Shown here: positions 2,997 to 31,132 of the stretch, piece by piece
Layout: the number at the start of each line of letters is the position of its first letter
Position numbering within the stretch: the first letter of the stretch is position 1
NCBI GenBank assembly: GCA_965279305.1
Contig: OZ257143.1
Coordinates: 1,290,001 to 1,322,000, forward strand
From: Gammaproteobacteria bacterium
Lineage (GTDB): Bacteria > Pseudomonadota > Gammaproteobacteria > JBIOEC01
Length of the DNA stretch: 32,000 bases
Direction: 5' to 3'
Notes under the pieces: model-generated
The model's input: the letters and a program-made list of their open reading frames with translations, nothing else
The model's database searches: none
Told to the model about the DNA's origin: nothing
Position numbers and translations under genes: made by a program

Positions 2997-5213
2997 ATGA
3001 ATAAGAAAATAGTGATATGCTGTGACACTACTTTGGCATCTTCTGTTGCTTATACAAATTTAGCAAAATTCGCAGATATGATTTCATCTCGTAGCAATGA
3101 TAGCGCTACTCAGATTGTATTTTATGATGCAGGAGAAGTGAATGTGGCTAAAATTAATTCAGCCATATCTGCCGTCGATAAAGATAAAATGATAGATCGA
3201 ATCAAATCGGCTTATATATATTTAGCTCATAATTACGTTGAAGGAGATGAAATTTATTTATTTGGTTATAGTATGGGGTCTTATGTTGTTAAAGTTTTGG
3301 CAGATATGGTGAGTAAACTAGGTATTTGTAAGGAAAAATGTATTGAAAATATAAATGAAATATGGCGTACTTATAAAAGTTTTACTTCCAGAAGTAGTGA
3401 TTTATTTTACCAAGATGTTAAAATTTATTGCTTAGGTGTATTTGATCCGGTAGTTTCAAAAAATTTTCCACTCACAGTAAAAGATGAAGAAATTCAAAAA
3501 AGTTTAACCTCAGGAATTAAGGGAATGTTACCTGAAGGCATAGTACCTAAATTTACAGGTACACTCGATTATAATGTTACCAATCTCTTTCAGATTTCTG
3601 CTTCAGAAGAAAGTATTATTCGTTCAGTTCCTTGGAGTAATTCGACGAATCGTGTAAATGCGGTCTCTAAAAACTATAATTTTGAAGGAAATCGAGCTGA
3701 TATTGGAGGGACTGGTAATAAAGAAAAAGGTCTTTTGGCGCTTGGATGGATGATAGGAAATATAAAAGAGAATTGTAGATTGGCCTTTGACTTAGAAAAA
3801 ATAGAGGGTTTACCTATTCCATTTTCTCCAGATAATAATCCTGTTGGTGGAGCATCTTCATCAGGTCCAGCTCCTGTGGCCCCTACACCGACTGCTCAAC
3901 CCTCAACTCTGCCTGGTCCAAGTTCCGCTAATTCTTTAACAGCTATACGTCATCTTTTTACAGCTAAACGTGATGATGGTGCAGGAACCACAGCAGGAAC
4001 CACAGCAGGAACCACAGCAGGACCTAAAATACATAGAATAGTTATTTGTTTTGATGGAACTTGGAATAATTCAGATGAAGACCCACATTATACAAACATT
4101 AGTAAAATTACTGAGCTTTATGCTGCTAATGCTGTAGTTAGTCTAATAAAACAATCTGTATACTATGTGAATGGTATAGGTTCAGGCACACATGGACGTT
4201 TTACAGCTGGTTATAATGGAGATGAAATACATGAAAAAATAAAAGATGGATATCATGTGATTGCTCGCGCATACAGAGACATGCTTGATGAACAGGAAAT
4301 GTTTCCTGATTATCAGTATGTTTTTGAGGTATGGCTTTTTGGTTTTAGTCGAGGTGCTTATACAGCTTGTTCGCTTGCAGGTCTCATTAGATATGTAGGA
4401 ATACCTTCTACTCTTCTTACTACACCCGATGAAGATCTTAACCCTATTGCTCAGGCTTATAATGCGTATAGAAATCGTATTAAGCAGCCGCGTCTTCTTC
4501 TAGAGCTCAAAAATGGAAAAAATTTTGATCTAATCAATATAAAATTTTTAGGGGTATTTGATACCGTACGAGCACTTTCTAATGGCATCGATAGGGCTAA
4601 TTATGATTTTCTTGATGCAAGCTTAGGGCACCCTGATGAATATGTATGGATAGAGTATGCTTATCATGCATTAGCACTTGATGAAAGGAGAAAACCATTC
4701 AAGCCTGAAATTTGGCAAGGAAATCGCCATCCCAGAACAACTGTGGAGCAAGTATGGTTTCCGGGAGTTCATTCGGATATTGGTGGTGGGTACCCTGCAG
4801 GAGAATCTCATTTATCACAGATCACTTTAAATTGGATGCTAGAGCGGGCTGTAGCGCGAGGATTTTTGCTTAGAAATAACACGCACGAGAAATTAAAACA
4901 ATATATTGCTCGAACAAGTCATGCAGATAACAATTCTTCTATTCTTCATAATCCGATTACAACAGCAAGACTACCATTAGGAGCTTATTATACAGCAACT
5001 CAAAAACCCAGAAAAATTTGTGACGCATATCAAGATCCAATTCGACATACTCACCCCAAACGCAATCTATTAAGTGGAAGAAAAAATTGTACATTCGAAA
5101 AAGTATCAATTAGTGTTTCCGTTAGAGATCGAATATTGGCTAGGAGAGACTATAGGCCAGATCTTTCACTCGCAACACCGGAAGTGAGAAATCGATACCC
5201 ATTTCCATCCTAG
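2997..5213 (+). CDS. Protein with two tandem DUF2235 (Tle1-like alpha/beta-hydrolase, putative phospholipase) domains joined by a Pro/Ala/Thr linker
   Basis: The C-terminal copy (aa ~346-640) carries the full DUF2235 motif series: IVICFDGTWNN, VYYVNGIGSG, LFGFSRGAYTACSLAGLI (GxSxG, Ser451), FLGVFDTVRAL, HALALDERRKPFKPEIW, EQVWFPGVHSDIGGGY. The N-terminal copy (aa 1-275) is degenerate: IVICCDTT, VFYDAGEV, LFGYSMGSYVV, CLGVFDPV, RADIGGTG. AGGAGA lies 6 nt upstream of the ATG. Confidence 0.85.
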   Translation: MNKKIVICCDTTLASSVAYTNLAKFADMISSRSNDSATQIVFYDAGEVNVAKINSAISAVDKDKMIDRIKSAYIYLAHNYVEGDEIYLFGYSMGSYVVKVLADMVSKLGICKEKCIENINEIWRTYKSFTSRSSDLFYQDVKIYCLGVFDPVVSKNFPLTVKDEEIQKSLTSGIKGMLPEGIVPKFTGTLDYNVTNLFQISASEESIIRSVPWSNSTNRVNAVSKNYNFEGNRADIGGTGNKEKGLLALGWMIGNIKENCRLAFDLEKIEGLPIPFSPDNNPVGGASSSGPAPVAPTPTAQPSTLPGPSSANSLTAIRHLFTAKRDDGAGTTAGTTAGTTAGPKIHRIVICFDGTWNNSDEDPHYTNISKITELYAANAVVSLIKQSVYYVNGIGSGTHGRFTAGYNGDEIHEKIKDGYHVIARAYRDMLDEQEMFPDYQYVFEVWLFGFSRGAYTACSLAGLIRYVGIPSTLLTTPDEDLNPIAQAYNAYRNRIKQPRLLLELKNGKNFDLINIKFLGVFDTVRALSNGIDRANYDFLDASLGHPDEYVWIEYAYHALALDERRKPFKPEIWQGNRHPRTTVEQVWFPGVHSDIGGGYPAGESHLSQITLNWMLERAVARGFLLRNNTHEKLKQYIARTSHADNNSSILHNPITTARLPLGAYYTATQKPRKICDAYQDPIRHTHPKRNLLSGRKNCTFEKVSISVSVRDRILARRDYRPDLSLATPEVRNRYPFPS
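3981..4022 (+). repeat. In-frame 12-bp tandem repeat, gcaggaaccaca x3 plus a partial copy, encoding (AGTT)3AG in the inter-domain linker
   Basis: Read directly: gcaggaaccaca at 3981, 3993 and 4005, then gcagga at 4017. Confidence 0.95.
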
Positions 5214-5272
5214 CTTGATGCTAAAAAGGGCAAATCTTGATATATGATATTTTAAACTTAAGACTAAATTTT

Positions 5273-5334
5273 TTTATATATTTTTACTATAATAGTTCTA
5301 TTAATAATTAAAAGGAATAAAATATGGGATGGGA
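5273..5334 (+). repeat. Copy 1 of a ~62-bp promoter/5'UTR/start-codon block (second copy at 7008-7068)
   Basis: 5273-5309 is identical to 7008-7044 (tttatatatttttactataatagttctattaataatt). Similarity continues through atatgggatg with one indel. The block contains a tataat hexamer at 5288-5293, 31 bp upstream of the ATG at 5324. Confidence 0.85.
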
Positions 5335-6178
5335 AATTGATGCGCTAAAAACGGCTGTTTCTGCTTATGCTCAATATGAGAAAGACAAGGCAACGGAAGC
5401 CAGTCTTGATTCATTGAACTCTCAGCTTGTAGAAGTAAGACGTTTAATTGTAGAAAACCATGCTCGTATTATACAAGCGATTATGGATATAAAAAGAGAC
5501 GAGCTAGAAGGGCGGTTAAATGGTCATTTAGATCAATTTCGTTTATTACCCAATTTACCTAAAGCCTCGAGAATAATTTTTCAATCTGAAAGTGCTTATT
5601 TGACGGGGGAGTTAAAAGCACTTGCAAGCAATAAAAGCTATAAACCTGAATATTTGTATGATTTTTTACGAATGCTTGTCATGCTAGCACCCATTCATGC
5701 GTTTGGGAATCGTATTATTGGAGTATCTGATGTAAGGTATCTTTTTGAAGGGGCTCACGCATTATGTATTGACTATACAAAACGGCCTCCACCAATGAGA
5801 GGAACCAAGGATAACTGGGTTGATCCAGCGTTTAGAGCAGATAGTAAAGAGCAAGCAGGTGATAAATTTCGTCAGTGGTTGGATACTGAAGTACATCCTC
5901 TGAGTAGAATGCTAATCGAAGGATGTTGGGAGATGTGTCAGTCGAGTAGCCTCTTATGGTATGCCAGTGTTAATGGAAAATCAGTTCCTGATATATTAAA
6001 TCCTACGTATGAAACAGGACAAAATATGCTGGAATTATGGTGGACTGTAAATGGGCGCGATGAATTTAAATTAGTTCTGCAGATGCAAGAGGAGATGCAG
6101 AGAGTTTTGGATTTTTTACCAAAATATCTAGAAGCCCCAACGACTGGAGCTTTAACCTATTCAGCAGGACCAGCATAG
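5324..6178 (+). CDS. Hypothetical protein (284 aa), no recognisable domain
   Basis: Long ORF with an AAAAGGAA-type SD region upstream. The C-terminus is small/polar (APTTGALTYSAGPA). Confidence 0.6.
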   Translation: MGWEIDALKTAVSAYAQYEKDKATEASLDSLNSQLVEVRRLIVENHARIIQAIMDIKRDELEGRLNGHLDQFRLLPNLPKASRIIFQSESAYLTGELKALASNKSYKPEYLYDFLRMLVMLAPIHAFGNRIIGVSDVRYLFEGAHALCIDYTKRPPPMRGTKDNWVDPAFRADSKEQAGDKFRQWLDTEVHPLSRMLIEGCWEMCQSSSLLWYASVNGKSVPDILNPTYETGQNMLELWWTVNGRDEFKLVLQMQEEMQRVLDFLPKYLEAPTTGALTYSAGPA

Positions 6179-6181
6179 TAA

Positions 6182-6236
6182 AGTGTGCAAACTGTCAGTA
6201 ATATCACACATTATTCTGAGTGGGAATAATGATATC
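6182..6236 (+). repeat. Collapsed remnant of the module found intact at 13365-14038 (retropepsin-like gene deleted)
   Basis: 6182-6215 aligns with 13365-13398 (agtgtgcaaactgt.ag.aatatcaca..., ~29/34). 6214-6236 aligns with 14017-14038 (ttctga.tgggaataa..atatc). The intervening ~620 bp is absent here. Confidence 0.7.
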
Positions 6237-6266
6237 TTGGGAGTGTGCTGGCTAAATCTCGAAAAA

Positions 6267-6295
6267 GCCAATGTCAAATGTCAAGACTTGACCCC
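6267..6295. repeat. 29-bp junction motif gccaatgtcaaatgtcaagacttgacccc (copy without an adjacent tRNA fragment)
   Basis: Identical to 8877-8905. Contains the direct repeat atgtcaa x2 and the 13-bp palindrome gtcaagacttgac (6280-6292). Confidence 0.9.
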
Positions 6296-6316
6296 TTTAA
6301 TCTTTGCTTAAACTTG

Positions 6317-6751
6317 CTATGACTTATAATTCTCTTTAAATTCACGCATTGCTTCGCCTATGCGAGTTAGCTCTGTTTCATCTAAGAATTTCTTTACTTT
6401 AGGGAATAGCCCTTTCTCTTCTTCTTTCGCGTGATGTTCTACATCTTTTTGGAATTTAATTAGTTCTTTTTCCCATTCAGAAGAATCCATAATTTTTGTT
6501 AAGTGGTCTATAAGTTTACTAGCATCTTTTTCTTCGTGGAGGAGATGCTTAATTTCCTCAAGGAGCTCTTTATTAGCGCTTAATTTAGGGTACCAAACAG
6601 TTTGCTCCATCTCTTCATGTCTGACCAGCTCATTTTTAATAGTTTCAAACAGATGTATTTTGGTTTCTTTCTTATGGCTCGGATCATTTAAATCTGCTAG
6701 TAAGGTACGAACTTTATGATGTTCTTTTATTAAAAAATCGATAGCATTCAT
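6317..6751 (-). CDS. Hemerythrin HHE cation-binding domain protein
   Basis: His/Glu motifs are spaced as in hemerythrin-like four-helix bundles: LIKEHHKV, VRHEEMEQ, HLLHEEKD, VEHHAKEEE. The ORF opens at 6766, but GGAGGA lies 7 nt upstream of the second ATG (6751), which I take as the start. Confidence 0.8.
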   Translation of the reverse strand: MNAIDFLIKEHHKVRTLLADLNDPSHKKETKIHLFETIKNELVRHEEMEQTVWYPKLSANKELLEEIKHLLHEEKDASKLIDHLTKIMDSSEWEKELIKFQKDVEHHAKEEEKGLFPKVKKFLDETELTRIGEAMREFKENYKS

Positions 6752-7007
6752 TAGATTATCCTCCATGAAATATTAAATTTATAGTAAACTTTTATTAGTT
6801 TGTCAAAATATTGCAATAATATCGCAGATTATAATATTTTTTTTATAAAATTTTACATTTCCACTGAAAATGCTATAGTCAAATATCGTCCTAAACTTAT
6901 CGGCGGTGTAAAATGAGTATTAAAAACCTGCTGAAAACGAGATATTAATAGAACTTGTTTATTTCTCCTAGTTGAGTTTTTTTACAATTTGAAAGTTTTC
7001 CGTATTA

Positions 7008-7068
7008 TTTATATATTTTTACTATAATAGTTCTATTAATAATTTACAGGATAAGATATGGGATGCGA
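7008..7068 (+). repeat. Copy 2 of the promoter/5'UTR/start-codon block of the 5324 gene, now fused to unrelated remnants
   Basis: See 5273-5334. The downstream 'ORF' 7058-7240 starts MGC... compared with MGW... for the 5324 gene. Confidence 0.85.
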
Positions 7069-7131
7069 ATTCGTGAACTTTAAAACAGCCCCAGGACTAA
7101 TATGTGCAGGCGGTGCATGCACAATTATGAC
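7067..7131 (+). repeat. Remnants of the KilA-N gene and of the hairpin that follows it (intact copies at 14286-14319 and 14907-14932)
   Basis: 7067-7100 (gaattcgtgaactttaaaacagccccaggactaa) aligns with 14286-14319 at 31/34. 7101-7126 aligns with 14907-14932 at ~21/26. About 590 bp of KilA-N coding sequence is missing between the two pieces. Confidence 0.75.
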
Positions 7132-7143
7132 TAAAAGGTATTT

Positions 7144-7225
7144 GCCTCGGGCAGGAATTGAACCTGCGACCTTCCCCTTAGGAGGAGAAAAGAAAACCAA
7201 TGTCAAATATCAAGACTTGACCCCC
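7144..7225 (-). repeat. tRNA-Arg(CCU) 3'-end fragment (7144-7185) plus 29-bp junction motif (7197-7225); att-type scar
   Basis: The minus strand reads CCTCCTAAGGGGAAGGTCGCAGGTTCAATTCCTGCCCGAGGC: anticodon loop CUCCUAA (anticodon CCU), variable region, T-arm GCAGG-TTCAATT-CCTGC and 3' acceptor strand. No D-arm or 5' acceptor strand follows, so this is not a functional tRNA. Confidence 0.75.
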
Positions 7226-7232
7226 TTTGGCA

Positions 7233-14078: not shown

Positions 14079-14906
14079 ATGGATAAAGATAAACGAATGA
14101 CCATAACTGTCCAAGGTTCATTGATTACAATTTTGTCAGTTAACAGCGATGACTATATTTCTTTAACGGATATGGCGAAAAAATTTGGAGATGAGAGTCT
14201 TATTTATAGTTGGATGCGAAATCGTAACACATTGGAATTTATAGGTATTTGGGAACAGATCCACAATCCAGATTTTAAAGGTAACGAATTCGTTACCTTT
14301 AAAACAGCCGCAGGACTAAACAATTTTAACCTTACACCTAAAAAATGGATTGATGCAACAGGAGCAATTGGAGTGCAATCTCGTGCAGGTCGGCATGGTG
14401 GCGGTACTTATGCTCATAAAGACCTTGCCTTTGAATTTGGCTCTTGGCTTAGTCCTGAATTCAAACTGTATTTGATTAAAGAATTTCAGCGACTTAAAGA
14501 AGACGAAAATCGTCGTTTATCGCTAGGATGGAATCTCAACCGTACCTTATCTAAGCTTAATTATCGAATTCATACTGATGCTATCAAAACCTATATTATC
14601 CCTGAGATCGTGAGTTCAGTACGAGCCAATTTTGTATATGCCAATGAAGCCGATGTGCTAAATGTTGCATTATTTGGAGAAACAGCGAAAGAATGGCGAG
14701 AGGCGAATCCAGAGCTTGAAGGTAATATACGTGAATATGCTAGTGTTGAGCAATTATTGGTATTAGCAAATATTGAAGCAATAAATGCTGAGTTTATTCG
14801 TATGAAATTATCTCAATCAGAGCGGTTAAAAAAATTAAATGAAATAGCTATCAGCCAGCTAAAAATTCTAACTTCTTTCAATAGTAAAAAGTTGTTAACT
14901 ATTTAA
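14079..14906 (+). CDS. KilA-N domain-containing DNA-binding protein
   Basis: The N-terminus ITVQGSLITILSVNSDDYISLTDMAKKFGDESLIYSWMRNRNTLEFIGIWEQIHNPDF is typical of KilA-N family proteins. GAGGG lies 5 nt upstream of the ATG at 14079 (the track starts at GTG 14073). Confidence 0.75.
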   Translation: MDKDKRMTITVQGSLITILSVNSDDYISLTDMAKKFGDESLIYSWMRNRNTLEFIGIWEQIHNPDFKGNEFVTFKTAAGLNNFNLTPKKWIDATGAIGVQSRAGRHGGGTYAHKDLAFEFGSWLSPEFKLYLIKEFQRLKEDENRRLSLGWNLNRTLSKLNYRIHTDAIKTYIIPEIVSSVRANFVYANEADVLNVALFGETAKEWREANPELEGNIREYASVEQLLVLANIEAINAEFIRMKLSQSERLKKLNEIAISQLKILTSFNSKKLLTI

Positions 14907-14907
14907 T

Positions 14908-14930
14908 TTGTGCAAGAGGTGCTTGCACAA
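14908..14930 (+). promoter_or_regulatory. Perfect 9-bp-stem palindrome ttgtgcaag-aggtg-cttgcacaa between KilA-N and higA (operator or terminator candidate)
   Basis: Read directly. It starts 2 nt after the KilA-N stop and ~30 nt upstream of the higA-like start. A diverged copy lies at 7102-7125. Confidence 0.5.
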
Positions 14931-14961
14931 TTGCCATAATAATATGAGAGGATTATCACTA

Positions 14962-15264
14962 ATGAAATCATTGCGCGCCAACTCAAGAAAACCCACTCAT
15001 CCGGGTGCTCTTTTACGAGAAGATATATTGCCTAAATTAAATATGTCGCAAGCACAAGTAGCTAGGCGTTTAGGCGTATCACGCCGCAGGGTATCAGAAA
15101 TCATTCATGAGCACCGTCCCCTCACTGCCGACATGGCCATTCGCCTTGCCCATTTTTTAGGTGGCACTCCTAATAGCTAGATAAACATGCAACAAGAGCT
15201 CGATATCTGGACATTAGAGCAAGAAAATAAATCCGAATACAATCAAATCCAGCAAGTAGGATAA
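14962..15264 (+). pseudogene. higA: HigA-family (XRE HTH) antitoxin interrupted by an in-frame TAG at 15178-15180; no HigB partner
   Basis: HPGALLREDILPKLNMSQAQVARRLGVSRRRVSEIIHEHRPLTADMAIRLAHFLGGTP is the HigA/VapI signature. After the TAG the same frame continues INMQQELDIWTLEQ..., matching the usual HigA C-terminal (F)W(L)N(L/M)Q..YDLW segment. TAG differs from TGG (Trp) by one base. Confidence 0.7.
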
Positions 15265-15284
15265 AATCAGCTCACAGACTGACG

Positions 15285-15310
15285 AATGTCAAATATAAAG
15301 ACTTGACCCC
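15285..15310. repeat. Degenerate copy of the 29-bp junction motif (aatgtcaaatataaagacttgacccc)
   Basis: It aligns with 6270-6295 with three substitutions that break the palindrome. No tRNA fragment is adjacent. Confidence 0.75.
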
Positions 15311-15689
15311 TTTGTTTTTAAGCAGAGCAATCAGAGCTTTATTTAGTTCTGTTGCGTATCTGTCGTGCTGTTCTTTTCCAAAGGATATACTTAACTCAAA
15401 GAAAGGTGGGATGGGCACAGTAAAGTCTTTTCTATCAGGGCGTGGCATTGGCTATCTTATTTTATGAAACAATTTAGAGATGGGTAATCTTTTGATTTTA
15501 CCTCAAAGATTGCTTTCTGTCTTATTTTATTGGTGTCAGGGTAGGAATCGGCCTCTGCTGAGCAAACAGAAAGCATATTAGTCACCCGCAATACAAAAGA
15601 CTTCCAAAAATCCCTTTCTATCATCCATCTGCCTTATATGTTGGATTAATAGAGGCTCTTGTATACCCTAGCAATCCTCTAGTTTTCAT

Positions 15690-18600
15690 CTAAGGGCTAG
15701 TAGATGTAGTTGATCTTGCGCCCGCAGTAGGAGCCGGTGCACCACCTTTAAAAGCAGTAAGGGCGGCAGCTATCGCTTGTTGCTGTGATGGACTAGGATC
15801 GAGAGGTATTAATACACCTGCGGCTCCAGGGTGGTCAGCAACTACTCCCCCAAAATTTACTTTATCTCCAGGCTTTGCGACCTTAAACATATCGAGAGAT
15901 TCTATATGCCGCTCAGTAGAAAAATCTTCTTTTCCTAACATTTTAATCGCTAATGTATCAGCTTCGCTTGCAACTGCTGTACGAAAATTAAAAGTTCTGC
16001 CAGTCGCAACTTGCAATTGAAGTTCAATACGTTTGAGATTAGCTGCTAATATCGCTACTTCTGCTACATCATGGCCAGCTGCTGCTTCTAATTGAGTCAC
16101 CCGATGAGCAAGCTCTAACCCAGAGCCTGCAATCGTTTTGTACAAAGAGGGTAATGTTGGTTTATTATGCAATAGATTCAATAATCTTTGTTGAAACTCT
16201 AGAACATGCATACCTGTGTTATCTTTTAATACTAATTCAAATGAAGAATTTTCTTTATTAATAGAATAAAGATCAAGAAGATCCATTCCATTTCGCCCAT
16301 AAAACGTTTCTAAAACGATGTCCCAACCTAAAGGGCCCAAATTGTTAGTTTTTGCCAAGCTAACTTCTAGTAAAAATTCTCGAACATTTTTATCAAAATG
16401 ACAGAGATTCAAAGTATTTTGATTTCTCTCTTTGGTAGGTAATGCGGCATAGTGGGCTGCAATCGCGATACATAATTCTTTTCCAAGTGTTGCTAAATCA
16501 GGTCGATGCCCATCTTTACTCGTTGTATCTAAAAAAGTCTTAACCGCAGGGGTAGTTGTAAACACCAGGTCAAACCACGATTCTTGGCCTTTGGGTGCGC
16601 CTAGAACGGTTCTAAGTCCTTTGTAAAGCCCATTCATCACTTTAAATGGGTAACTTAATACAACAGTTAGACCTGCTTCAACTGTTTTCCCTATGCTATC
16701 AAAATCACTATAATTGGCCTGAGGCCAGTCTACCATTTGTCTAAAATCTTTAGGATAACCTGTTTTTGGATCTAAACCTGCGCCAATATGATTTGTTCGA
16801 TGATCATTTAAAAAATCAAACTTTACATCGTTAGCTCCGTCTAAATGCCAAACTGTTCCAGTTTGAGTACCAAAAGTGCTCACGATGGTAGGCCCTGCAC
16901 AGAAATTATGAACATTTAAATCGGCAATATTAATCTTAGCTTGTTGGGCACGATTACCAGACTGAAGTGCCGCTTCCATAAATTCAACACCCCCAGGTGC
17001 ATCAAAAACAACTGCACTCATATCCGGATAATAAGATGCTATTTGATCAGAACGATGAGCCCAATAAGTTCCAATAAAACCAAGAAAGCCACCTAATGAA
17101 TGTCCGGTACTCGATATGCGAAAACGACGTTCTTTATAAGAAACCAGAGCGGGATGAGAGAGTACTTCTAAGGAGGCTTTTACAAAAGTTCCTGACTGCA
17201 AACGAACAACGGAGTGAATATCATTCAACCATAAAGTAGTTCCTTTCGAACCTCTATGTGCAATCACCACTTGTTCTTTTTGTTCGTGAACCCAAATACT
17301 TCCTTTATATTCACTTACCGGATCGGATATAAATTCAATAAGCTGCCAATCTCTGTCTTCTAAAGGTTGTTGCGCAGCAGGCATAGGTACTTTATAAGTC
17401 TGTCCAGCAAGATGCAGATTATCTTCATAAACAGCTACGCTCATCAAAAAATACTCATAAGGAGTAGGAGGAGGAAGTAAGACTGCAGATACAATTTTAG
17501 TAGGTGCTGGAGCGGCTGCTGGAGTTTGGAGCATATATATTTCCTTATCTGTAGATTCATTTAATAAAATTGGAGAGTCATGGTTGGTACTCCCATCACT
17601 TGAAGCTCTTGAAAAAAAAGCTTCTGACGATACACTTCTGTAGACTAAGTCTAGTTGCCTATCTAGTATTTTTCCAGAAGAAAAAGGTAATGAATGATTC
17701 ACATTAGGTTCTAAATGATCTAAAAGCGATTCTGCTAATGGAGAATATCTCGCTTTTACTATTTTTTTTAATCTAGGAAGAACATTTCTAAAATTTTCAC
17801 TCTCTCCTAATTGTTGATAACAGGTCGCTAATAGGTAAGCAGCTAACAATTTAGCATACAGAATAAAACCGTGACGTTGAGGCACTAGCCGCGCCAAATT
17901 AGATTCTATTACATTTTGAGAATTTGCAAAAATAAAAGTTTGTCGATGAATCCCTTGAGTTTCTAGAGCTAGTTTTAAAAATTTAGCTGCTTTTTTCAAA
18001 TTACCTTGAACCAGTAAAAAATGGCCATATCTAAGATAAACTAAAGCATTAGGCTCATGTTCTAAAGCTTCCGCGTGTATTTTAGAAGCTTCAACTATCT
18101 TACCTTGATGCTGCAGGGAATAAGCTAAGTTGGATAAAGCATAACTTATTAATAAGTGAGGACCATTATTGAAGTATATTTTGTAGGCCTCTAATACACC
18201 ATGAAGTAAATATGTTGCTTGCTCAATATCTCCCAGACAACCTAAGGCATTGGCTAGGTTGTGCGTCGTTCTTGCTATCTCAATAAAAATTAATCTATTA
18301 TTTGCATCAGTTTTAGCTAAATTAAATATTGCCAATGCATGCACTGACAAAGAAAGTTTTTTTTGATGCTCGCCTATTCCTATTTCACCATAAGCGTTTC
18401 CTAATTTTCTTATAATGATTCCTATATTAAGATGAAACTTAGTTTCAAGGTATGTTTCACTTAAATTTAATACTCTTTCTAACAGCCTAACCTCTCTAGG
18501 AGTATCTCCTAACCAATGAGAGGTGCTTGCAGCAAGCTCTAATAATTTTATATGTATATTGAAAAAAGGCCTTGGAACAGCATTTGGGAATCGAGAAATT

Positions 18601-20087
18601 AAATTTCCTTCACATGCTCTCATATGAGGCAATAATTCCTTACGATAATTTATCTCTTCTTTTGAAGGCCCCATGTCATTTTTACAGGCATCCTCAAATG
18701 CAGATAATATTTTTTCGAGCGCCATTAGATAATTATTTTCTGAAAAGGAGCTCGTTAGAGTATCATCCCGGATAAACGAATAAAATAAACCATGGCTAAA
18801 ATCAAAGCTTGTATTATCTTCAGAAAGAGTAATAATAGATTTTTTCCTAAGTTCTTCTATTATATCTGCTGTGTCGTCATCATTAACCATTAAAAACCTG
18901 ATTAGAGAAACAGGCATAGAGTATCTATTAAAAAAACCAAGATAATAAAAAAATAAATCAAGCGTCGGGGAATTTATTTTTTCTTTCAACATATCTTTTG
19001 TTAATTGCCAGGTAACAACCAAATTTTCATGGTAGCTTGAAGGGTGTTTTAATGTCCTAGCTAGAACTTTAGTTCTTCCCTCTAGAAAATTTCCAAGATA
19101 TATATCTACACTTTTTTTGATTCTGATATCATTTGCAATAATTATTCCTGAATAAGTAATGCCGAGAGGCAGTCTGTCTAAATAAACTAATAAAGTTGAG
19201 ATGGCTCTATCTTGAGCTGTAGCCTGTTTAGGAGTAAGTTTTGCATACTTTATTAGCGTTTCTCTAGCTTCTTCACGGGACATGGATTGTATAGGAATAG
19301 TCCCTGGGAAATCAGGGCTAGTTGTTGTTTGTAAAATAACTCCGCCTGTGGATGGAATATATTTTCTAATAGCGTCAAAATCTTCAACATCGTCTAATAC
19401 CAAAATCCATCCTGGTGTACTTTCTAAAAAATTCTTAACTGCTAATGAATTTTTTTCTTTTAAATCTTCTCCAGGAAAAAGAACAGAAGGGGGATGTGCA
19501 ATACCAAATTTTAATGCCAAATCACTCATTTCATATAAAAATGTTTTGTCATTTGCATTTAGCCATATATGATAACGGTATCGTTCAGCTGTTTGATGAT
19601 AATACTGTGAGGCCAACCATGTTTTTCCTTCACCAGATGCACCAGATAGAGTAACTAATTGTATTGGCTCTTTTCTTTGTTCGGAAATTTTATTATCAAT
19701 GACAAGAATAGAGTTCTCTTTTCGATTTCGAGCGGATGGATCATCCACAGATAAAGAACGCTGGGTAAAAAGTTCGGGAATATAAGAATGGGCCTTTCCA
19801 AAAAAAGCTCCATTCAACATTTTTTGTTTTTCAAAAAAAACTTCTAAAATTTTAGTAAGTTGATTTTGTTGGGCTTCATTAAGATCACCTACTATTTCTA
19901 TTGCAGCGCTTCCTTCAGCACCTGCAATCGCACTTAAATCATGAATTTTAACCCCAGGAGGAAATTGATCTTGTAAAGCTTTTAAATCGACTAGCAAGTC
20001 CTCAGGTTTCCCAGCAATGGCTACAGCCAAAGTGTTACTGGCAGAGGCAACTACAGAGCGGAGTCGGATTTCAGTGGTTTCAGGCAC
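15690..20087 (-). CDS. NB-ARC-type STAND NTPase + TPR array + class-3 lipase domain protein (1465 aa)
   Basis: Walker A is LSGASGEGKTW (aa 147-157; 19620-19643) and Walker B is WILVLDDVED (aa 227-236). GGVILQTTTS (RNBS-B-like) and DRLPLGI (GLPLA-like) are also present. TPR-like helices span aa ~545-770 (e.g. NLANALGCLGDIEQATYLLHGVLEAY). Lipase_3 motifs are VVIAHRGSKG and STGHSLGG (Ser997; 17088-17105). The N- and C-terminal ~75-aa modules are homologous. Confidence 0.85.
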   Translation of the reverse strand: MPETTEIRLRSVVASASNTLAVAIAGKPEDLLVDLKALQDQFPPGVKIHDLSAIAGAEGSAAIEIVGDLNEAQQNQLTKILEVFFEKQKMLNGAFFGKAHSYIPELFTQRSLSVDDPSARNRKENSILVIDNKISEQRKEPIQLVTLSGASGEGKTWLASQYYHQTAERYRYHIWLNANDKTFLYEMSDLALKFGIAHPPSVLFPGEDLKEKNSLAVKNFLESTPGWILVLDDVEDFDAIRKYIPSTGGVILQTTTSPDFPGTIPIQSMSREEARETLIKYAKLTPKQATAQDRAISTLLVYLDRLPLGITYSGIIIANDIRIKKSVDIYLGNFLEGRTKVLARTLKHPSSYHENLVVTWQLTKDMLKEKINSPTLDLFFYYLGFFNRYSMPVSLIRFLMVNDDDTADIIEELRKKSIITLSEDNTSFDFSHGLFYSFIRDDTLTSSFSENNYLMALEKILSAFEDACKNDMGPSKEEINYRKELLPHMRACEGNLISRFPNAVPRPFFNIHIKLLELAASTSHWLGDTPREVRLLERVLNLSETYLETKFHLNIGIIIRKLGNAYGEIGIGEHQKKLSLSVHALAIFNLAKTDANNRLIFIEIARTTHNLANALGCLGDIEQATYLLHGVLEAYKIYFNNGPHLLISYALSNLAYSLQHQGKIVEASKIHAEALEHEPNALVYLRYGHFLLVQGNLKKAAKFLKLALETQGIHRQTFIFANSQNVIESNLARLVPQRHGFILYAKLLAAYLLATCYQQLGESENFRNVLPRLKKIVKARYSPLAESLLDHLEPNVNHSLPFSSGKILDRQLDLVYRSVSSEAFFSRASSDGSTNHDSPILLNESTDKEIYMLQTPAAAPAPTKIVSAVLLPPPTPYEYFLMSVAVYEDNLHLAGQTYKVPMPAAQQPLEDRDWQLIEFISDPVSEYKGSIWVHEQKEQVVIAHRGSKGTTLWLNDIHSVVRLQSGTFVKASLEVLSHPALVSYKERRFRISSTGHSLGGFLGFIGTYWAHRSDQIASYYPDMSAVVFDAPGGVEFMEAALQSGNRAQQAKINIADLNVHNFCAGPTIVSTFGTQTGTVWHLDGANDVKFDFLNDHRTNHIGAGLDPKTGYPKDFRQMVDWPQANYSDFDSIGKTVEAGLTVVLSYPFKVMNGLYKGLRTVLGAPKGQESWFDLVFTTTPAVKTFLDTTSKDGHRPDLATLGKELCIAIAAHYAALPTKERNQNTLNLCHFDKNVREFLLEVSLAKTNNLGPLGWDIVLETFYGRNGMDLLDLYSINKENSSFELVLKDNTGMHVLEFQQRLLNLLHNKPTLPSLYKTIAGSGLELAHRVTQLEAAAGHDVAEVAILAANLKRIELQLQVATGRTFNFRTAVASEADTLAIKMLGKEDFSTERHIESLDMFKVAKPGDKVNFGGVVADHPGAAGVLIPLDPSPSQQQAIAAALTAFKGGAPAPTAGARSTTSTSP

Positions 20088-20234
20088 AGCTCAGCCTTAA
20101 TAAAAAATTTTATTTTTGTGATTTTATTAGACGACCTATTTGTCGGTAGTATAGCCTATATATGCGCTTTTTGCGTGCACACCGCACATTGAGGATACCT
20201 CACTTTTTATTTGGAGGTGCTAATGGAGTGGCCT

Positions 20235-20291
20235 GTAAAAAAGAGTATGCCCCGGGCAGGAATCGAACCTGCGACCTTCCCCTTAGGAGGG
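20235..20291 (-). repeat. tRNA-Arg(CCU) 3'-end fragment (20249-20291) with a conserved trailer; att-type boundary next to the integrase
   Basis: Identical to 11379-11421. Beyond the anticodon loop the sequence (gacaagatatacag...) cannot form the anticodon stem or D-arm, so the tRNA is truncated here. Confidence 0.8.
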
Positions 20292-20462
20292 ACAAGATAT
20301 ACAGTCCATTACAGTCCAAGGAACTCCAGAATATTTAAAAATTACCGAGAAAAACCGCTGTTTTTTCGCTTGAACACTTCCCTGAAATCTTGTAAACTCC
20401 AGTAATATCCAGTGACTTTGGTAGTACCCATGGTAGTCCCTGGGAGAATGAGGATGAAAGAG

Positions 20463-21770
20463 ATGGTAAAGTTAACTGCTAAAACAGTAGAAAATGCACA
20501 AGCTAAAAATAAAGAATATAAGCTAAACGATGGGAATGGATTGTACTTGAGAGTGAGGACAACGGGTTCAAAAAGTTGGATTTTTTGTTTCCATCCACCC
20601 GGAGAACGTAAGCTTATTACTATGACCATAGGCTCGCTTAAAGATTTGTCTTTAAAAGAAGCAAGAAGTAAATTACCGGAATTACGCAAATTAGTTGTCG
20701 AAGGGACTGATCCAAGACGTGCACGCGCGGCTGCTAAAGCAGAAAACTTGCGAGCCATAACCATGCAAATGTTATTTGATGATTGGGTTAAATTTTTGGT
20801 AGTCGCTAAAAAAGCGACTCCTGATTGGATTAAACGCCAGGAAAATCGCTGGAGACTACACTTAAAAAAACCTTTAGGGAATTTCTTTGTGAAAGATGTG
20901 ACGAGGGCACATTTAGCATCTGCGCTTGATATTATGATCCGTAAAGGCATTAAAGAAGAAACACGCAAAGCTTTAACCATCCTCAATCTTATGTTGGATC
21001 ATGCTTTAACTCGACACTCAATTGAGCAAAATCCTGCCCGTATGTTAAAGCCTAAAGATTTTGCTGTCACTGCAAGTCGCCCATGCAACAGGGCTTTATC
21101 TTTATCTGAGTTACGGGAGTTGTGGCTCGCTTTGGATCAAACTGCGGGATCTCCAGGTACTACCAAGATGAGTGAGATTACGAGAACCGTGATCAAAATA
21201 CTCATTTTAACAGGCGCTCGCAGGGGTGAGGTGGTAGGCATGCAGTGGTCGGAGCTCGACTTGTCTGAAGCCATTTGGAATTTACCCCCCTCTCGCGTTA
21301 AAAATCGACAAGCCCACACTATTTACCTATCTAGGCTTGCTCTAACGCTTTTAGAAGCATTAAAACCTGTGACGGGGGGCTCACCGTTTGTATTTAATAC
21401 TGAGCATAAAACGGAATCAGGGCATATCCATAAAGATGTCGTAACGGGAGCTATTAGGCGTTTGCAAGTTCGCGCTAAAGCTAATCCTAACAAAAGCTTT
21501 TTGCAGAATATTAACTCCTTCACTATACATGATTTGCGTCGGTCAGCTGCAACAGCATGGGGAGAGCATTTAAAGGTTAGCCCTCACATCATTGAGCGCA
21601 TGTTAAATCATCAACCATTGGATAAGCTAATAGCCACCTACCAGCGGGCGGTATATGCTGAAGAACAAAAGGCCGCATGGATGGCATGGGGAGAGCTTGT
21701 AGAACGTCGGGTAGCTAATAAAATTGATAATGTAGTCCCTTTAAAAAAAGTAAAAGAAGCTATGTCATAA
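20463..21770 (+). CDS. int: P4-type tyrosine integrase
   Basis: The N-terminal DUF4102-type arm domain is LTAKTVENAQAKNKEYKLNDGNGLYLRVRTTGSKSWIFCF. The catalytic region has TGARRGEV (Arg), HDLRRSAAT (H-x-x-R) and LNH...Y near the C-terminus. The ORF opens at 20412 (GTG); the ATG at 20463 has GAGGA 8 nt upstream. Confidence 0.9.
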   Translation: MVKLTAKTVENAQAKNKEYKLNDGNGLYLRVRTTGSKSWIFCFHPPGERKLITMTIGSLKDLSLKEARSKLPELRKLVVEGTDPRRARAAAKAENLRAITMQMLFDDWVKFLVVAKKATPDWIKRQENRWRLHLKKPLGNFFVKDVTRAHLASALDIMIRKGIKEETRKALTILNLMLDHALTRHSIEQNPARMLKPKDFAVTASRPCNRALSLSELRELWLALDQTAGSPGTTKMSEITRTVIKILILTGARRGEVVGMQWSELDLSEAIWNLPPSRVKNRQAHTIYLSRLALTLLEALKPVTGGSPFVFNTEHKTESGHIHKDVVTGAIRRLQVRAKANPNKSFLQNINSFTIHDLRRSAATAWGEHLKVSPHIIERMLNHQPLDKLIATYQRAVYAEEQKAAWMAWGELVERRVANKIDNVVPLKKVKEAMS

Positions 21771-21962
21771 CTCCGCAAGCTTAAAAAGCTGATAATATAA
21801 ACAGCCATAAAATTGCCATTTCGCCCCGCGAAATCCCTGTTTTGCCCTGCGAAACTGGGATCAGATCCCTCTTTTTTCATTTTCATATTGTGCAATTAAT
21901 CTTATCCGATTATAAATGGATGTTAATGAAGTATTAATTAATAAAAAAGGAGTACCACACAC

Positions 21963-22184
21963 ATGAATGAAGTTCCTCATACTGGCTACATGCGCATTAA
22001 GCAAATCATTGGCAGTCCCAAATCACGACCACCTATTATGCCTCTCATCCCTGTGGGCAAATCCACTTGGTGGCAAGGTGTTAAATCGGGACGCTTCCCA
22101 CAACCGATAAAAATTGGCAAAAAAATTACCGTATGGAGAGCCGAAGATATTTATCATTTTATTGAGAAGGAAGACCATGAATAA
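21963..22184 (+). CDS. alpA: AlpA-family (Phage_AlpA, MerR-like HTH) regulator/excisionase, copy 1
   Basis: MRIKQIIGSPKSRPPIMPLIPVGKSTWWQGVKSGRFPQPIKIGKKITVWRAEDIYHFI fits the AlpA pattern (stiw..vk.G.FP.P.k.g.r...W...ev..w). An AAAGGAG SD is present. Confidence 0.85.
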   Translation: MNEVPHTGYMRIKQIIGSPKSRPPIMPLIPVGKSTWWQGVKSGRFPQPIKIGKKITVWRAEDIYHFIEKEDHE

Positions 22185-22398
22185 TCTTGCCCCATTTATT
22201 CATACCCTCTTATTAGTAAAAACACTATATATAAAAACAGACCCAAAAACGCACTTTTGGGTCCCGAAATCCCAGTTTTGGGACCCAAAACTGGGATCAG
22301 ATCGCACTTTTTTCATTTTCATATTGTGCAATTAATCTTATCCGATTATAAATGGATGTTAATGAAGTATTAATTAATAAAAAAGGAGTACCACACAC

Positions 22399-22620
22399 AT
22401 GAATGAAGTTCCTCACACTGGCTACATGCGCATTAAGCAAATCATTGGCAGTCCCAAATCACGACCGCCTATTATGCCTCTGATTCCTGTAGGCAAATCC
22501 ACTTGGTGGCAAGGTGTTAAAACAGGGCGATTCCCACAGCCCATAAAAATTGGCAAAAGGATTACCGTATGGAAAGCCGAAGATATTTATCATTTTATTG
22601 AAAAGAAAGAGCATGAGTAG
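22399..22620 (+). CDS. alpA: AlpA-family regulator/excisionase, copy 2
   Basis: 73 aa, differing from copy 1 at S43T, K54R, R59K and the last five residues. Confidence 0.85.
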   Translation: MNEVPHTGYMRIKQIIGSPKSRPPIMPLIPVGKSTWWQGVKTGRFPQPIKIGKRITVWKAEDIYHFIEKKEHE

Positions 22621-22973: not shown

Positions 22974-23270
22974 CTAAACCATTGCATCCGCGATCACACC
23001 AGGAGTAGCCTCTTTCTTTTGGGGCAACTCAAATAATTTGCGATCACTATCTCGGGTCAAGTACTTATCGAGTTTAGTGACGAGTGCCGCATAGCTACTT
23101 TTTTCTCGCGCTTGGTCAAGCATGTATGCTCCCACCAAAATTTTTCGGCGAGTTTCTTCTCGTTCTTGCTTTGAGCGATCGCGTGCTTTTAGATTTTGAA
23201 TTTGCGCTTGTAGTTGTGCTTGTCTCTTTTCAAGTTTTTCGATTTGTTTCGCAGCCTGTGTTTTTGACAT
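22974..23270 (-). CDS. TraD/MobC-like relaxosome accessory protein
   Basis: An N-terminal coiled coil is followed by EREETRRKILVGAYMLDQA...LTRDSDRKLFEL. This resembles the small Ti-plasmid TraD / MobC family (R-x-x-TRRKI-x-x-G ... DR-x-LF). It is transcribed divergently from the relaxase, as in traCD-oriT-traA arrangements. Confidence 0.5.
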   Translation of the reverse strand: MSKTQAAKQIEKLEKRQAQLQAQIQNLKARDRSKQEREETRRKILVGAYMLDQAREKSSYAALVTKLDKYLTRDSDRKLFELPQKKEATPGVIADAMV

Positions 23271-23400
23271 GTGTTTTACTCCCTATAATTCTTAGATCAT
23301 TAGCGTGAGTCAAACTCTTTTCTCTGTCAATGGCTTCATGCGTCCGCTGGACTTTCTGGGACTATAAAAAAATAATTTTTCAAAAAAACTTCCACTAAAT
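23268..23400. repeat. Copy A of a ~130-bp direct repeat of the traD-like 5' end/leader region (copy B at 24022-24152)
   Basis: cttagatca.ta.cgtgagtcaaactcttttctctgtcaat.gc.tcatgcgtc.gctggactt.c.tgggactat... is shared by 23291-23397 and 24045-24150. Similarity extends to the cat(g/a)tgtttta start-codon region. Confidence 0.85.
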
Positions 23401-23465
23401 AAATTTAATTAAGGATTTTGGAGTGTTATAATTAAGCTTCATGAAATAAAAGAGGAGTAAAGCAT

Positions 23466-23762
23466 ATGAATGAAATAATACCTGTTGATGTAGGGCAAAT
23501 TGAAGACATGATCAGCAATATAGACAAGATCTCTGAGATATGGCTAGGCCAGCTTCCAGACGAACCTGAGTTGAGAAAAGAAACGATACAGCTTCTCGCC
23601 CATGTGGGTTCATTGGAAGGAGAAGGGAAGATGCCTGTGGCGGATAAGCAAGAAATGTTAGTGTTATCAAAAAACATGTTAGACACTTTCACCGAATTTC
23701 AAAAGCTGATCGAAACATCCCAAGATACTCTACGTAGTCTGCTCACACTGAAGATCCAATAG
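23466..23762 (+). CDS. Hypothetical protein (98 aa)
   Basis: An AGAGGAG SD lies upstream of the ATG. The gene sits between the two copies of the 130-bp repeat. Confidence 0.5.
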   Translation: MNEIIPVDVGQIEDMISNIDKISEIWLGQLPDEPELRKETIQLLAHVGSLEGEGKMPVADKQEMLVLSKNMLDTFTEFQKLIETSQDTLRSLLTLKIQ

Positions 23763-24021
23763 AGGCAACAGGCAGGATTCGCCTTATACGCATTATTATC
23801 TGTATTAGCGAAGCCCTGCTTGGGGCAAGTTATTTGATGGCAGGAGAACATTTTCAGGGGGCATTAAAGCCCCTGAAAAATCGTCATCGCCTCTCATCTT
23901 TAATCTAAAAGAGCACGTAGCCGTATGCTACGTAAAGTAAAATTTCTCAAGACACTTCTGTTTAACATATCAACCTCCTCTGTTTGAGCAATTATTTTTT
24001 ATTTTTAGTCTGTGTTCGTAA

Positions 24022-24152
24022 CATATGTTTTATTTCTTGTACTTCTTAGATCACTACCGTGAGTCAAACTCTTTTCTCTGTCAATAGCCTCATGCGTCAG
24101 CTGGACTTCCTTGGACTATTTAAAATAAATTTTCTAAAAAAAACTTCTACAG
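24022..24152. repeat. Copy B of the ~130-bp direct repeat; retains only a 10-codon stub of a traD-like start
   Basis: The minus-strand ATG at 24024 gives MLRTQTKNKK* only. The rest aligns with copy A. Confidence 0.85.
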
Positions 24153-30713: not shown

Positions 30714-30760
30714 AGTTTTTTGCAACGTATCTGGAAAAACTAGAATACCAATCTCAAATA

Positions 30761-31132
30761 TCAAGGCCTTGAAACCTGCTTCAAAAATGCTTGCCCAACA
30801 GGCTTATAACACATGGTAATAAAAACAGCATGAGTGAGTGACTTACACTTTAACTTGGTTTTAATACGCTGCCGATATGTTACAACCGTAGATTTCTCAA
30901 TTCTCATCAAATCTGCTGTTTGTTTTACAGTATTACCTTGGGAAATCCAAAAGAGACAAGTGCGCTCTCTGTCTGAAAGGCTTTCAATCTGTTTTGAATG
31001 AGGATTAGCAATTGCATAAGATAATAACTCACTAATCAAGCAATGTTGCCTAGGGCTAGGAGATGAATTTCCACACGCGAATAAAATATCATTTACTAAT
31101 TTACTTGGAGCCCATAGTTCATATTTATTCAT
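30761..31132 (-). CDS. LuxR/GerE-family HTH transcriptional regulator (123 aa)
   Basis: LSDRERTCLFWISQGNTVKQTADLMRIEKSTVVTYRQRIKTKLKCKS matches the GerE-type HTH signature. Confidence 0.8.
   Translation of the reverse strand: MNKYELWAPSKLVNDILFACGNSSPSPRQHCLISELLSYAIANPHSKQIESLSDRERTCLFWISQGNTVKQTADLMRIEKSTVVTYRQRIKTKLKCKSLTHAVFITMCYKPVGQAFLKQVSRP

Follow-up and report, generated by a model that had tools for sequence, protein, structure and literature searches.

The window analysed here, a 32,000-nucleotide stretch of contig OZ257143.1 from a gammaproteobacterium, carries a gene for a 1465-amino-acid (aa) protein in which an NB-ARC-type STAND NTPase and a TPR solenoid are joined to a class-3-lipase-fold domain, with a copy of a small module near each end (Table 1). 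We read this product as a single-chain NLR-like conflict or immunity protein in which a two-component system, STAND receptor and lipase executioner, would have been fused, and on the sequence and structure comparisons below we give this reading about an even chance. The open reading frame (ORF) at 15690-20087 is real: it runs uninterrupted for 4.4 kb on the minus strand, and since an in-frame stop codon lies directly 5' of its GTG, with AAGG 7 nt before that GTG, the latter is the first possible start of the 1465-aa frame. A scan for promoters and terminators returned nothing above chance. A preliminary description of this DNA had listed the same ORF with NB-ARC, TPR and class-3 lipase domains. 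Checked on the translated ORF, all of the motifs it quoted sit at the residues given, and profile and fold searches uphold the three domain calls; it had overlooked the module copies (the first ~88 aa and aa 1359-1447) and a conserved helical domain of ~230 aa between the lipase core and the C-terminal module.

The lipase family represented in the C-terminal part is recurrently fused to, or in an operon with, NACHT or NB-ARC NTPases, which supports the NLR logic with a lipase output proposed in that description. P0030/P0159 (1602 and 1607 aa, from peat or soil-type JGI metagenomes) is a full-length homologue with the same layout and ~35% identity to the window protein (34% over 554 aa for aa 1-546, E=3e-82; 39% over 576 aa for aa 872-1437, E=3e-117). 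P0030 surfaced only in an exhaustive search with the C-terminal part, whereas word-based homology searches with the full-length and N-terminal sequences returned only the window protein and two FxSxx-TPR proteins, or nothing, and a metagenome scan with the N-terminal alignment gave only more copies of P0159. Because P0030/P0159 was recovered identically from at least five metagenome contigs, the fusion is real and conserved, and not an assembly accident. Other members are an NB-ARC-DUF7779-TPR-lipase fusion (P0034), an AAA-TPR-Ank-lipase fusion (P0036), two lipase-NTPase-DUF7779-TPR fusions (P0033 and P0035) and, in a Coxiellaceae metagenome-assembled genome (MAG), lipase-NACHT-HEAT within one ORF (L007). 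At three loci (L042, L005 and L006) a stand-alone gene of ~600 aa for lipase plus module is followed within 100 nt, or with overlap, by a NACHT gene. Given two NTPase clades, three types of sensor repeat and three kinds of linkage, this lipase family is, as judged from domain order and gene order, the effector arm of NLR-like systems. The preliminary description knew of no characterised protein with this domain order; the order is in fact shared by P0030/P0159 and P0034, and none of these is characterised.

The conservation of the fusion also bears on the possibility that the gene is an artefact, whether a pseudogene in decay or adjacent NLR and lipase genes that a sequencing error has joined. 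The junction is indeed a low-complexity disordered linker (aa 791-866, with a Pro/Ala stretch at aa 856-863), and related systems do occur as two separate genes, but the ORF is unbroken over its whole length, its catalytic and NTPase motifs are intact, and the same fusion is found at ~35% identity on several independent contigs (P0030/P0159) and again in P0034. Moreover, the two-gene loci run lipase then NLR, an order from which simple read-through would not yield that of the window protein, and we regard an artefact as very improbable.

Several loci of the family hold further genes. At L004 a 1619-aa protein (4330-9189) lies directly downstream of the lipase-plus-module gene, where other loci have the NACHT partner; it has no Pfam match and no Walker A motif, and carries a unit-like motif, VTYKSATATGAKGKANTF, near its N-terminus (the repeat unit is described below). 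Directly downstream of P0036, in a Legionellales MAG, is a 1507-aa STAND-TPR paralogue (L032, 16808-21331) that ends in a eukaryote-type SH3_1 domain and has no lipase; by their sequences the two may represent one receptor chassis with different outputs. P0159 is preceded by a translationally coupled gene for a 742-aa DUF4135 protein (LanM N-terminal-like, E=1.6e-19; L030 3851-6079 and L031 677-2905), a candidate common component that we rejected as it has no counterpart in the window. The P0159 locus is flanked by insertion sequence (IS) elements and a nucleotidyltransferase pair (NTase_sub_bind plus NTP_transf_2/Polbeta), possibly a toxin-antitoxin (TA) pair.

The NTPase has the NB-ARC motifs that had been quoted for it. 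Walker A (GASGEGKT, 149-156, with K155), Walker B (WILVLDDVED, 227-236), GGVILQTTTS (248-257) and the GLPL-like DRLPLGI (304-310) are all present; G149, G152, G154, K155, T156 and D232, as well as L306, P307 and L308 of the GLPL-like motif, are invariant in our NB-ARC alignment (A3). An MHD-like H432...R440 follows, in which SHGLFYSFIR (431-440) aligns with VHRLVQAVIR and R440 is invariant. The Pfam NB-ARC model (PF00931) is reached only below threshold (19.8 bits vs a cut-off of 23.5, E=5e-4, aa 131-255 only), and aa 135-397 are matched at E=1.1e-26 by FxSxx_TPR, the NCBIfam model for NB-ARC plus TPR; a profile built from the window protein and its relatives matches AfsR (7e-25), Apaf-1 (1.3e-12), Roq1, NRCs and MLA13. 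NB-ARC homology is clear from these profile matches despite the sub-threshold Pfam score. The AlphaFold2 (AF2) model of aa 1-870 is of moderate confidence (mean predicted local distance difference test score, pLDDT, 61) with 70-88 across aa 130-340. Its top Foldseek match in the PDB is the STAND-TPR protein 6mfv (E=2.5e-8), followed by Apaf-1, CED-4 and ZAR1, and the comparison recovers the fold of nucleotide-binding, helical and winged-helix domains (NBD-HD-WHD). TPR_10 scores above its Pfam cut-off in the window protein, AF2 places unbroken helical repeats over aa ~450-790, and Foldseek returns TPR matches there. The TPR-like helices reported previously are thus present, over a wider extent than the 545-770 assigned to them.

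The class-3 lipase core was checked in the same way. An oxyanion strand, IAHRGS (942-947, within VVIAHRGSKG 940-949), and GHSLGG (995-1000, within STGHSLGG 993-1000, containing S997) align with the FRGS and GHSLGG motifs of Thermomyces lipase and are followed by VVFDAPGG (1026-1033). HRGS, GHSLGG with S997, FDxPG with D1029, and H1096 are invariant in 21 aligned family members, and the predicted Ser997-Asp1029-His1096 set is complete, family-invariant and in Ser-Asp-His order. Taken alone, the window protein remains below the cut-off of Pfam Lipase_3 (PF01764; 13.6-15.3 bits vs 22, E=0.02-0.06), a threshold that its homologues P0004 (25.4 bits), P0012 (24.4) and P0033 (26.2) exceed, and the family profile matches solved class-3 lipases (Thermomyces, Rhizomucor) at E=3.6e-5. 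In the AF2 model of the lipase part the core has pLDDT >90, and the top Foldseek matches in the PDB are feruloyl esterase A and class-3 lipases of fungi (E 3e-7 to 1e-5, probability 1.0; template modelling (TM) score normalised to the target 0.44-0.53). The preliminary assignment of a class-3 lipase therefore stands on the family profile, on Foldseek (~3e-7) and on the invariant S997, D1029 and H1096. The helical domain of ~230 aa after the core is modelled as helices with pLDDT 80-90 over aa ~1220-1360. An exhaustive homology search with the C-terminal 666 aa gave 400 cluster representatives at E<=1e-3, 36 of them at E<=1e-30. Precomputed matches to Pfam PF26363 ('Phospholipase-like') exist for homologues P0004-P0027, P0035 and P0036, and the window's C-terminal region is related to such PF26363-bearing homologues at E down to 1e-117. 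Many members (P0005, P0007, P0019, P0021, P0023, P0026-28, P0032 and others) continue past the module into a disordered polar, often acidic tail, which in most stand-alone lipases ends in a conserved [S/L/P/V]xKK(Q/S/P) motif that is missing from the window protein; the xKK tail might act as a signal for secretion or as a basic tail that binds membranes.

The module shared by the two ends is ~85 aa long, and in the stand-alone lipases the conserved tail corresponds to its C-terminal copy. Homology links residues 9-84 with residues ~1368-1446 (BLASTP 32% identity, E=6e-6; shuffle test p=0.0005), and a hidden Markov model (HMM) trained on the lipase tails finds the N-terminal copy at aa 9-79 (independent E-value 2.6e-4) as well as the C-terminal one (1.5e-24). 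P0030 likewise has both copies (shuffle test for the duplication between its N- and C-terminal ends, p=0.005), and the window's N-terminal copy is orthologous to P0030 aa 167-248. As the two N-terminal copies are closest to one another (score 107 vs 74 for N vs C), the two-module arrangement is older than the split between the window and P0030 lineages. Each module is made up of a pair of 21-residue pseudo-repeats that follow the pattern h-x-h-[R/D]-[T/S/G]-A-[I/V]-A-x-x-x-[G/N]-[S/T]-x-A-[I/V]-x-h, r1 and r2, which align without gaps as 21-residue units over 38-49 copies, and between them lies a conserved helical segment of ~30 residues. AF2 folds the module as beta-beta-beta-alpha twice (pLDDT ~80-87). 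In P0033 and P0035, in which the lipase directly precedes the NTPase in one chain, the module HMM did not find it, as an adaptor role would predict. We propose that the terminal module probably couples the NTPase switch to the lipase.

Whether a counterpart exists on the NTPases of the two-gene loci was addressed at two scales. A full module on a neighbouring gene was rejected, the full-module HMM having found no second copy in the neighbours of stand-alone lipases. At the scale of the single unit, NACHT/NB-ARC partners have one unit-like motif at the extreme N-terminus, for example LNIGSAVAKGEISIPVV in L005, to be compared with IHIDGAVAKGNDATALV, the r2 of its lipase. The best or only unit-HMM match is N-terminal in five of the seven partner NLRs, at scores of only 2-5 bits; hhalign gives P=2e-4 for segments picked by eye, and shuffle tests on the pairs do not reach significance (p=0.12-0.49). 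We treat a single unit on the NLR partners, suggested by these alignments, as a lead and not as a result.

If the protein is a fused receptor and executioner, it would work as follows. At rest the NB-ARC domain would be closed. Binding of a ligand by the TPR region (a phage or mobile-element protein, another invader, or a stress cue) would release it for nucleotide-dependent oligomerisation, which would gather the N-terminal modules. These would then engage C-terminal modules homotypically, in cis or in trans and possibly also those of stand-alone lipases, and such contacts would cluster and activate lipase domains on membranes, where hydrolysis of membrane lipids would lead to growth arrest or cell death, an abortive-infection outcome. 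A more specific version, drawn by analogy and in our view doubtful, is that the module is a templating (amyloid-like, HET-s/NWD2-style) element of Legionellales NLR-lipase systems. The NB-ARC oligomer would in that case nucleate a beta-solenoid-like assembly that recruits and activates its own and free lipases, and the window protein would unite receptor, template and executioner in one chain. That AF2 folds the module neither proves nor excludes amyloid templating.

Several observations weigh against a conflict or immunity role. Among the PADLOC-DB 2.0 families (Avs1-5, bNACHT and others) none matches the protein at E<=1, so the Avs-like membership considered in the preliminary description was not borne out, and Avs and bNACHT proteins do not typically have their effector on the C-terminal side of the sensor. 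The sensor-1 (RNBS-B) arginine is missing from the NB-ARC domain, with ILQTTTS (TTTS at 254-257) in the window protein and LLITTNN in P0030 in place of the ITSR/VTSR of P0034, P0002 and P0003; the nucleotide cycle may for this reason be unusual, with ATP hydrolysis or sensing altered in the window/P0030 clade. No relatives of the lipase part were found in PLSDB plasmids or IMG/VR viral contigs. The close family is confined to Legionellales-, Coxiellaceae- and Rickettsiales-type host-associated MAGs, and its links to OTU and ankyrin domains, and to a eukaryote-type SH3 domain in an adjacent paralogue, point to eukaryotic hosts and not to phages.

The host-associated MAGs and the eukaryote-type domains are also what a second explanation builds on, one raised in outline in the preliminary description, in which the protein is a translocated host-directed effector, exported by a Dot/Icm type IVB system by way of its polar C-terminal tail, as the stand-alone lipases would also be, and acting as a phospholipase on host membranes; NB-ARC-TPR would then be a switch gated by a host ligand or a mimic of host NLR/apoptosome platforms. 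We consider this the main rival, possible though less probable than a self-contained receptor and executioner. Close members derive from Legionella, Legionellales, Coxiellaceae and 'Gammaproteobacteria' MAGs and the distant ones from Rickettsiales and Cytophagales MAGs, the window's relaxase is nearest to those of Aquicella, Legionella and Fluoribacter plasmids, and eukaryote-type domains occur as OTU in P0006, as ankyrin repeats in P0036 and P0042 and as SH3_1 in the paralogue beside P0036. Moreover, the NCBIfam model of RLip, a lipase that Rickettsia secretes and that helps it to escape from the vacuole (PMC12507273), is weakly matched by family members, the tails of the family are polar, disordered and often acidic with an [S/L]xKK ending, NB-ARC proteins are found in the eukaryotic-association module of Wolbachia prophage WO (PMC6133264), and neighbouring islets in the window hold a Tle1-like phospholipase and repeat proteins. 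However, the window's own tail is small and polar with no acidic residues and no KK ending, the window protein itself fails to reach the RLip model, and the family was not found in representatives of cultured Legionella species at the sensitivity used. The steady pairing with NACHT/NB-ARC proteins and the shared terminal module are, furthermore, the signature of a self-contained NLR-effector system and not of lone effectors.

The gene appears to travel with an integrative islet linked to a tRNA, in a bacterium that is Legionellales-like to judge from the family's relatives and the relaxase. The window (~37% GC) contains five copies of a tRNA 3'-end fragment in the same orientation (Table 1), each comprising an anticodon-loop-like CUCCUAA, T arm and acceptor strand (minus strand ...CTCCTAAGGGGAAGGTCGCAGGTTCGATTCCTGCCCGGGGCA), possibly derived from tRNA-Arg(CCU), and no intact tRNA was found within the 32 kb; from this we infer tandem islets accreted at one tRNA, each with one to four cargo genes. 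Besides the STAND-lipase gene, the islet at 13345-20240 encodes a small HTH protein, a KilA-N protein and a retropepsin-like fragment. By the tRNA-fragment repeats, it is the adjacent islet that holds the P4-type integrase (20412-21770) and the TraA relaxase, so that the placing of the gene among integrase genes, as had been stated, is not supported. The relaxase is closest to those of Aquicella, Legionella and Fluoribacter plasmids (45-49%) and shares 52% identity with its counterpart on the plasmid-like contig carrying P0035. Of the defence-island-like context proposed earlier one element held up, the KilA-N neighbour (277 aa, within 14073-15180), whose full length is matched by the unvalidated PADLOC candidate PDC-S22 (E=3e-125); this is the only strong PADLOC match among the neighbours, and no other neighbour is defence-flavoured.

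This setting suits a third explanation, that the gene is a mobile-element addiction or competition module, killing cells that lose the element or gain a rival, or else a ligand-regulated lipid enzyme with no role in conflict. Its islet is bounded by tRNA-fragment repeats, relatives lie on plasmid-like or IS-flanked contigs beside TA-type genes, and the STAND-TPR proteins AfsR and MalT are regulators rather than immune proteins. On the other hand, the protein has no DNA-binding domain, its lipase effector keeps what in the alignment is an intact predicted catalytic set, and the variety of NTPase clades and sensor repeats (TPR, HEAT, Ank) in the family typifies diversifying conflict systems; we think this explanation unlikely, more so than translocation into a host.

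Other features of the islet array are recorded here as observations in their own right. The KilA-N gene is translationally coupled to a gene for a 90-aa HTH_3 protein, and the pair (14073-15180) and the STAND-lipase gene are convergent. A repeat of 34 nt, AAAGCCAATGTCAAATGTCAAGACTTGACCCCTT, which contains a hairpin, occurs at 6264-6297, 7193-7226, 8874-8907, 15279-15312 and 30744-30777; the copies at 7193 and 8874 adjoin tRNA fragments, the STAND-lipase gene has one ~380 nt downstream, and the repeat may be an islet end, a recombination element or a terminator. A second lipase-type cargo of the array is a 738-aa protein (2997-5213) whose C-terminal part is a type VI secretion system Tle1-like (DUF2235) phospholipase (E=1.6e-94) behind an uncharacterised N-terminal extension of 346 aa, its gene containing a triplicated 12-nt repeat at 3981-4022. 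A 598-aa ORF (11508-13304), alone in its own islet, has six tandem 99-nt (33-aa) repeats of 65-85% identity, and its only Pfam matches, to a TAL-effector repeat and UBA_DHX29, look spurious. Just downstream of the integrase (21795-22530) is a 300-nt duplication (90% identity, 436 nt apart) with ORFs of ~73 aa, and upstream of the relaxase (23224-24142) one of 165 nt (78%). The small ORF at 22974-23270 has homologues beside the relaxase on the P0035 plasmid-like contig.

Table 1. Features of the STAND-TPR-lipase gene and of the tRNA-fragment repeats, in window coordinates.
Feature	Residues (aa)	Position	Strand	Basis or remark
Whole gene, STAND-TPR-lipase protein	1465 aa	15690..20087	-	GTG start; stop codon 15690-15692
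N-terminal module copy	2-88	19824..20084	-	two 21-aa pseudo-repeats, EIRLRSVVASASNTLAVAIAG and KIHDLSAIAGAEGSAAIEIVG, plus helices
NB-ARC-type STAND NTPase	~100-445	18753..19790	-	profile, Foldseek, motif alignment
Helical/TPR solenoid, presumed sensor	~450-790	17718..18740	-	Pfam TPR_10/TPR_12 at aa 603-711; AF2; Foldseek
Disordered Ser/Pro/Ala-rich linker	791-866	17490..17717	-	pLDDT <50 in both AF2 models
Class-3-lipase-fold alpha/beta-hydrolase core	867-1130	16698..17489	-	family alignment, profile, Foldseek
Codon of predicted nucleophile	S997	17097-17099	-	
Conserved helical domain after lipase core	1131-1358	16014..16697	-	HHFD-type motif around H1230; family alignment
C-terminal module copy	1359-1447	15747..16013	-	TFNFRTAVASEADTLAIKMLG and KVNFGGVVADHPGAAGVLIPL; module HMM, AF2, repeat-unit alignment
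Small/polar disordered tail	1448-1465	15693..15746	-	GGAPAPTAGARSTTSTSP
tRNA 3'-end fragment, att-like repeat, upper islet boundary		20240..20282	-	between gene start and integrase; direct-repeat families D3/D4
tRNA 3'-end fragment, att-like repeat, lower boundary of the gene's islet		13303..13345	-	direct repeat
Further tRNA 3'-end fragments		7135-7177, 8816-8858, 11370-11412		same orientation

NLR-type receptors with enzymatic executioners are a theme common to bacterial, fungal, plant and animal immunity, and how the signal passes from receptor to executioner is understood in only a few cases. That an NLR-like STAND protein can have an enzymatic effector was already known, and fungal NLR-controlled lipases are a precedent. 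What is new is that this lipase family takes the part of an NLR effector, that it occurs in Legionellales-type bacteria, and that there is a double-repeat module of ~85 aa; new too is the single-chain layout, in which each end has a module and the effector follows the sensor. None of the sources that we consulted describes this family as an NLR effector, and it is wired to both NACHT and NB-ARC NTPases through operons and through N-terminal and C-terminal fusions. The single-chain version would be handy for testing homotypic adaptor binding against amyloid-like templating, and the locus could show whether NLR-like systems of host-associated Legionellales serve phage defence or host manipulation. 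Templating, if true, would mean that prion-like NLR signalling also occurs in unicellular host-associated Proteobacteria, where the death effector would be a phospholipase.

Among known systems, Avs/AVAST and bNACHT proteins, the latter with proven activity against phage (Kibby et al., bioRxiv 10.1101/2022.07.19.500537), resemble the window protein in that one protein or operon combines a STAND NTPase hub with a repeat sensor (TPR, HEAT or Ank) and an effector enzyme, in being carried on mobile elements and, by analogy, in the expected logic of ligand, oligomerisation and effector activation. They differ in that the window NTPase is NB-ARC-type and not of the Avs or NACHT clades, in the placing of its effector C-terminal to the sensor, and in its duplicated terminal module; the window protein has no PADLOC match, and the words 'lipase' and 'phospholipase' do not occur in the text of the bNACHT preprint (bioRxiv 10.1101/2022.07.19.500537). 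With the class-3 lipases (Rhizomucor, Thermomyces, feruloyl esterase A) it shares the fold, the (F/H)RG(S/T) oxyanion strand, the GHSLGG elbow and the Ser-Asp-His order, whereas its identity to solved lipases is ~13-18%, it scores below the Lipase_3 cut-off, it has an extra helical domain and terminal module, and its acid lies only 32 residues past the nucleophile. Rickettsia RLip (PMC12507273), distantly matched by family members, is a lipase of an intracellular bacterium, and a secreted one. Plant EDS1, PAD4 and SAG101 also have a class-3-lipase-like domain followed by a helical (EP) domain, and work with NLRs. An EDS1-like homology over both domains was nevertheless rejected and kept as a lead only, as Foldseek E ~1e-4 comes with TM 0.15-0.2 and a root-mean-square deviation >20 Å, and only the lipase domain is truly matched. 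EDS1 signalling needs no catalysis, while in the window family the catalytic set is invariant.

The closest parallels to the module are adaptor domains and signalling motifs. In the adaptor logic of the effector-associated domains (EADs) of NTP-dependent conflict systems, one copy on a core NTPase and one on an effector are proposed to interact homotypically (Kaur et al. 2020, PMC7159879), and the window module is similar in being a small non-enzymatic terminal domain present on both NTPase and effector and dispensable in direct effector fusions. The published EADs are mostly all-alpha. The window protein carries both copies on one polypeptide, and it has no match to the Pfam EAD families (EAD1-11). 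By motif logic, the systems to compare are the fungal and bacterial motif pairs (HET-S/NWD2 HRAM, PNT1/HELLP/SBP, HET-eN/SESA/SESB and BASS), among them the fungal NLR-controlled lipases SBP and SESB (PMC5485727) and the BASS pairs of bacterial NLRs and alpha/beta-hydrolases with shared terminal motifs (bioRxiv 10.1101/2020.01.06.895854). SBP, SESB and some BASS pairs have a predicted lipase or alpha/beta-hydrolase effector with a C-terminal motif, as does the window family; in these pairs, too, the NLR motif is N-terminal, the genes are adjacent, the effector has two 21-residue pseudo-repeats and 'all-in-one' fusions exist, and the unit-like motif at the extreme N-terminus of NACHT partners in the window-related loci would fit this pattern. 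The window protein has no Pfam match to HET-s_218-289 or other known signalling motifs at E<=1, and its repeats differ in being split by the ~30-aa helical segment and in being modelled as folded (beta-beta-beta-alpha twice) and not disordered. BASS were described in multicellular bacteria, whereas the window lineage is a unicellular host-associated proteobacterium, and here both partners are found in one chain, with a full two-repeat module as the N-terminal copy.

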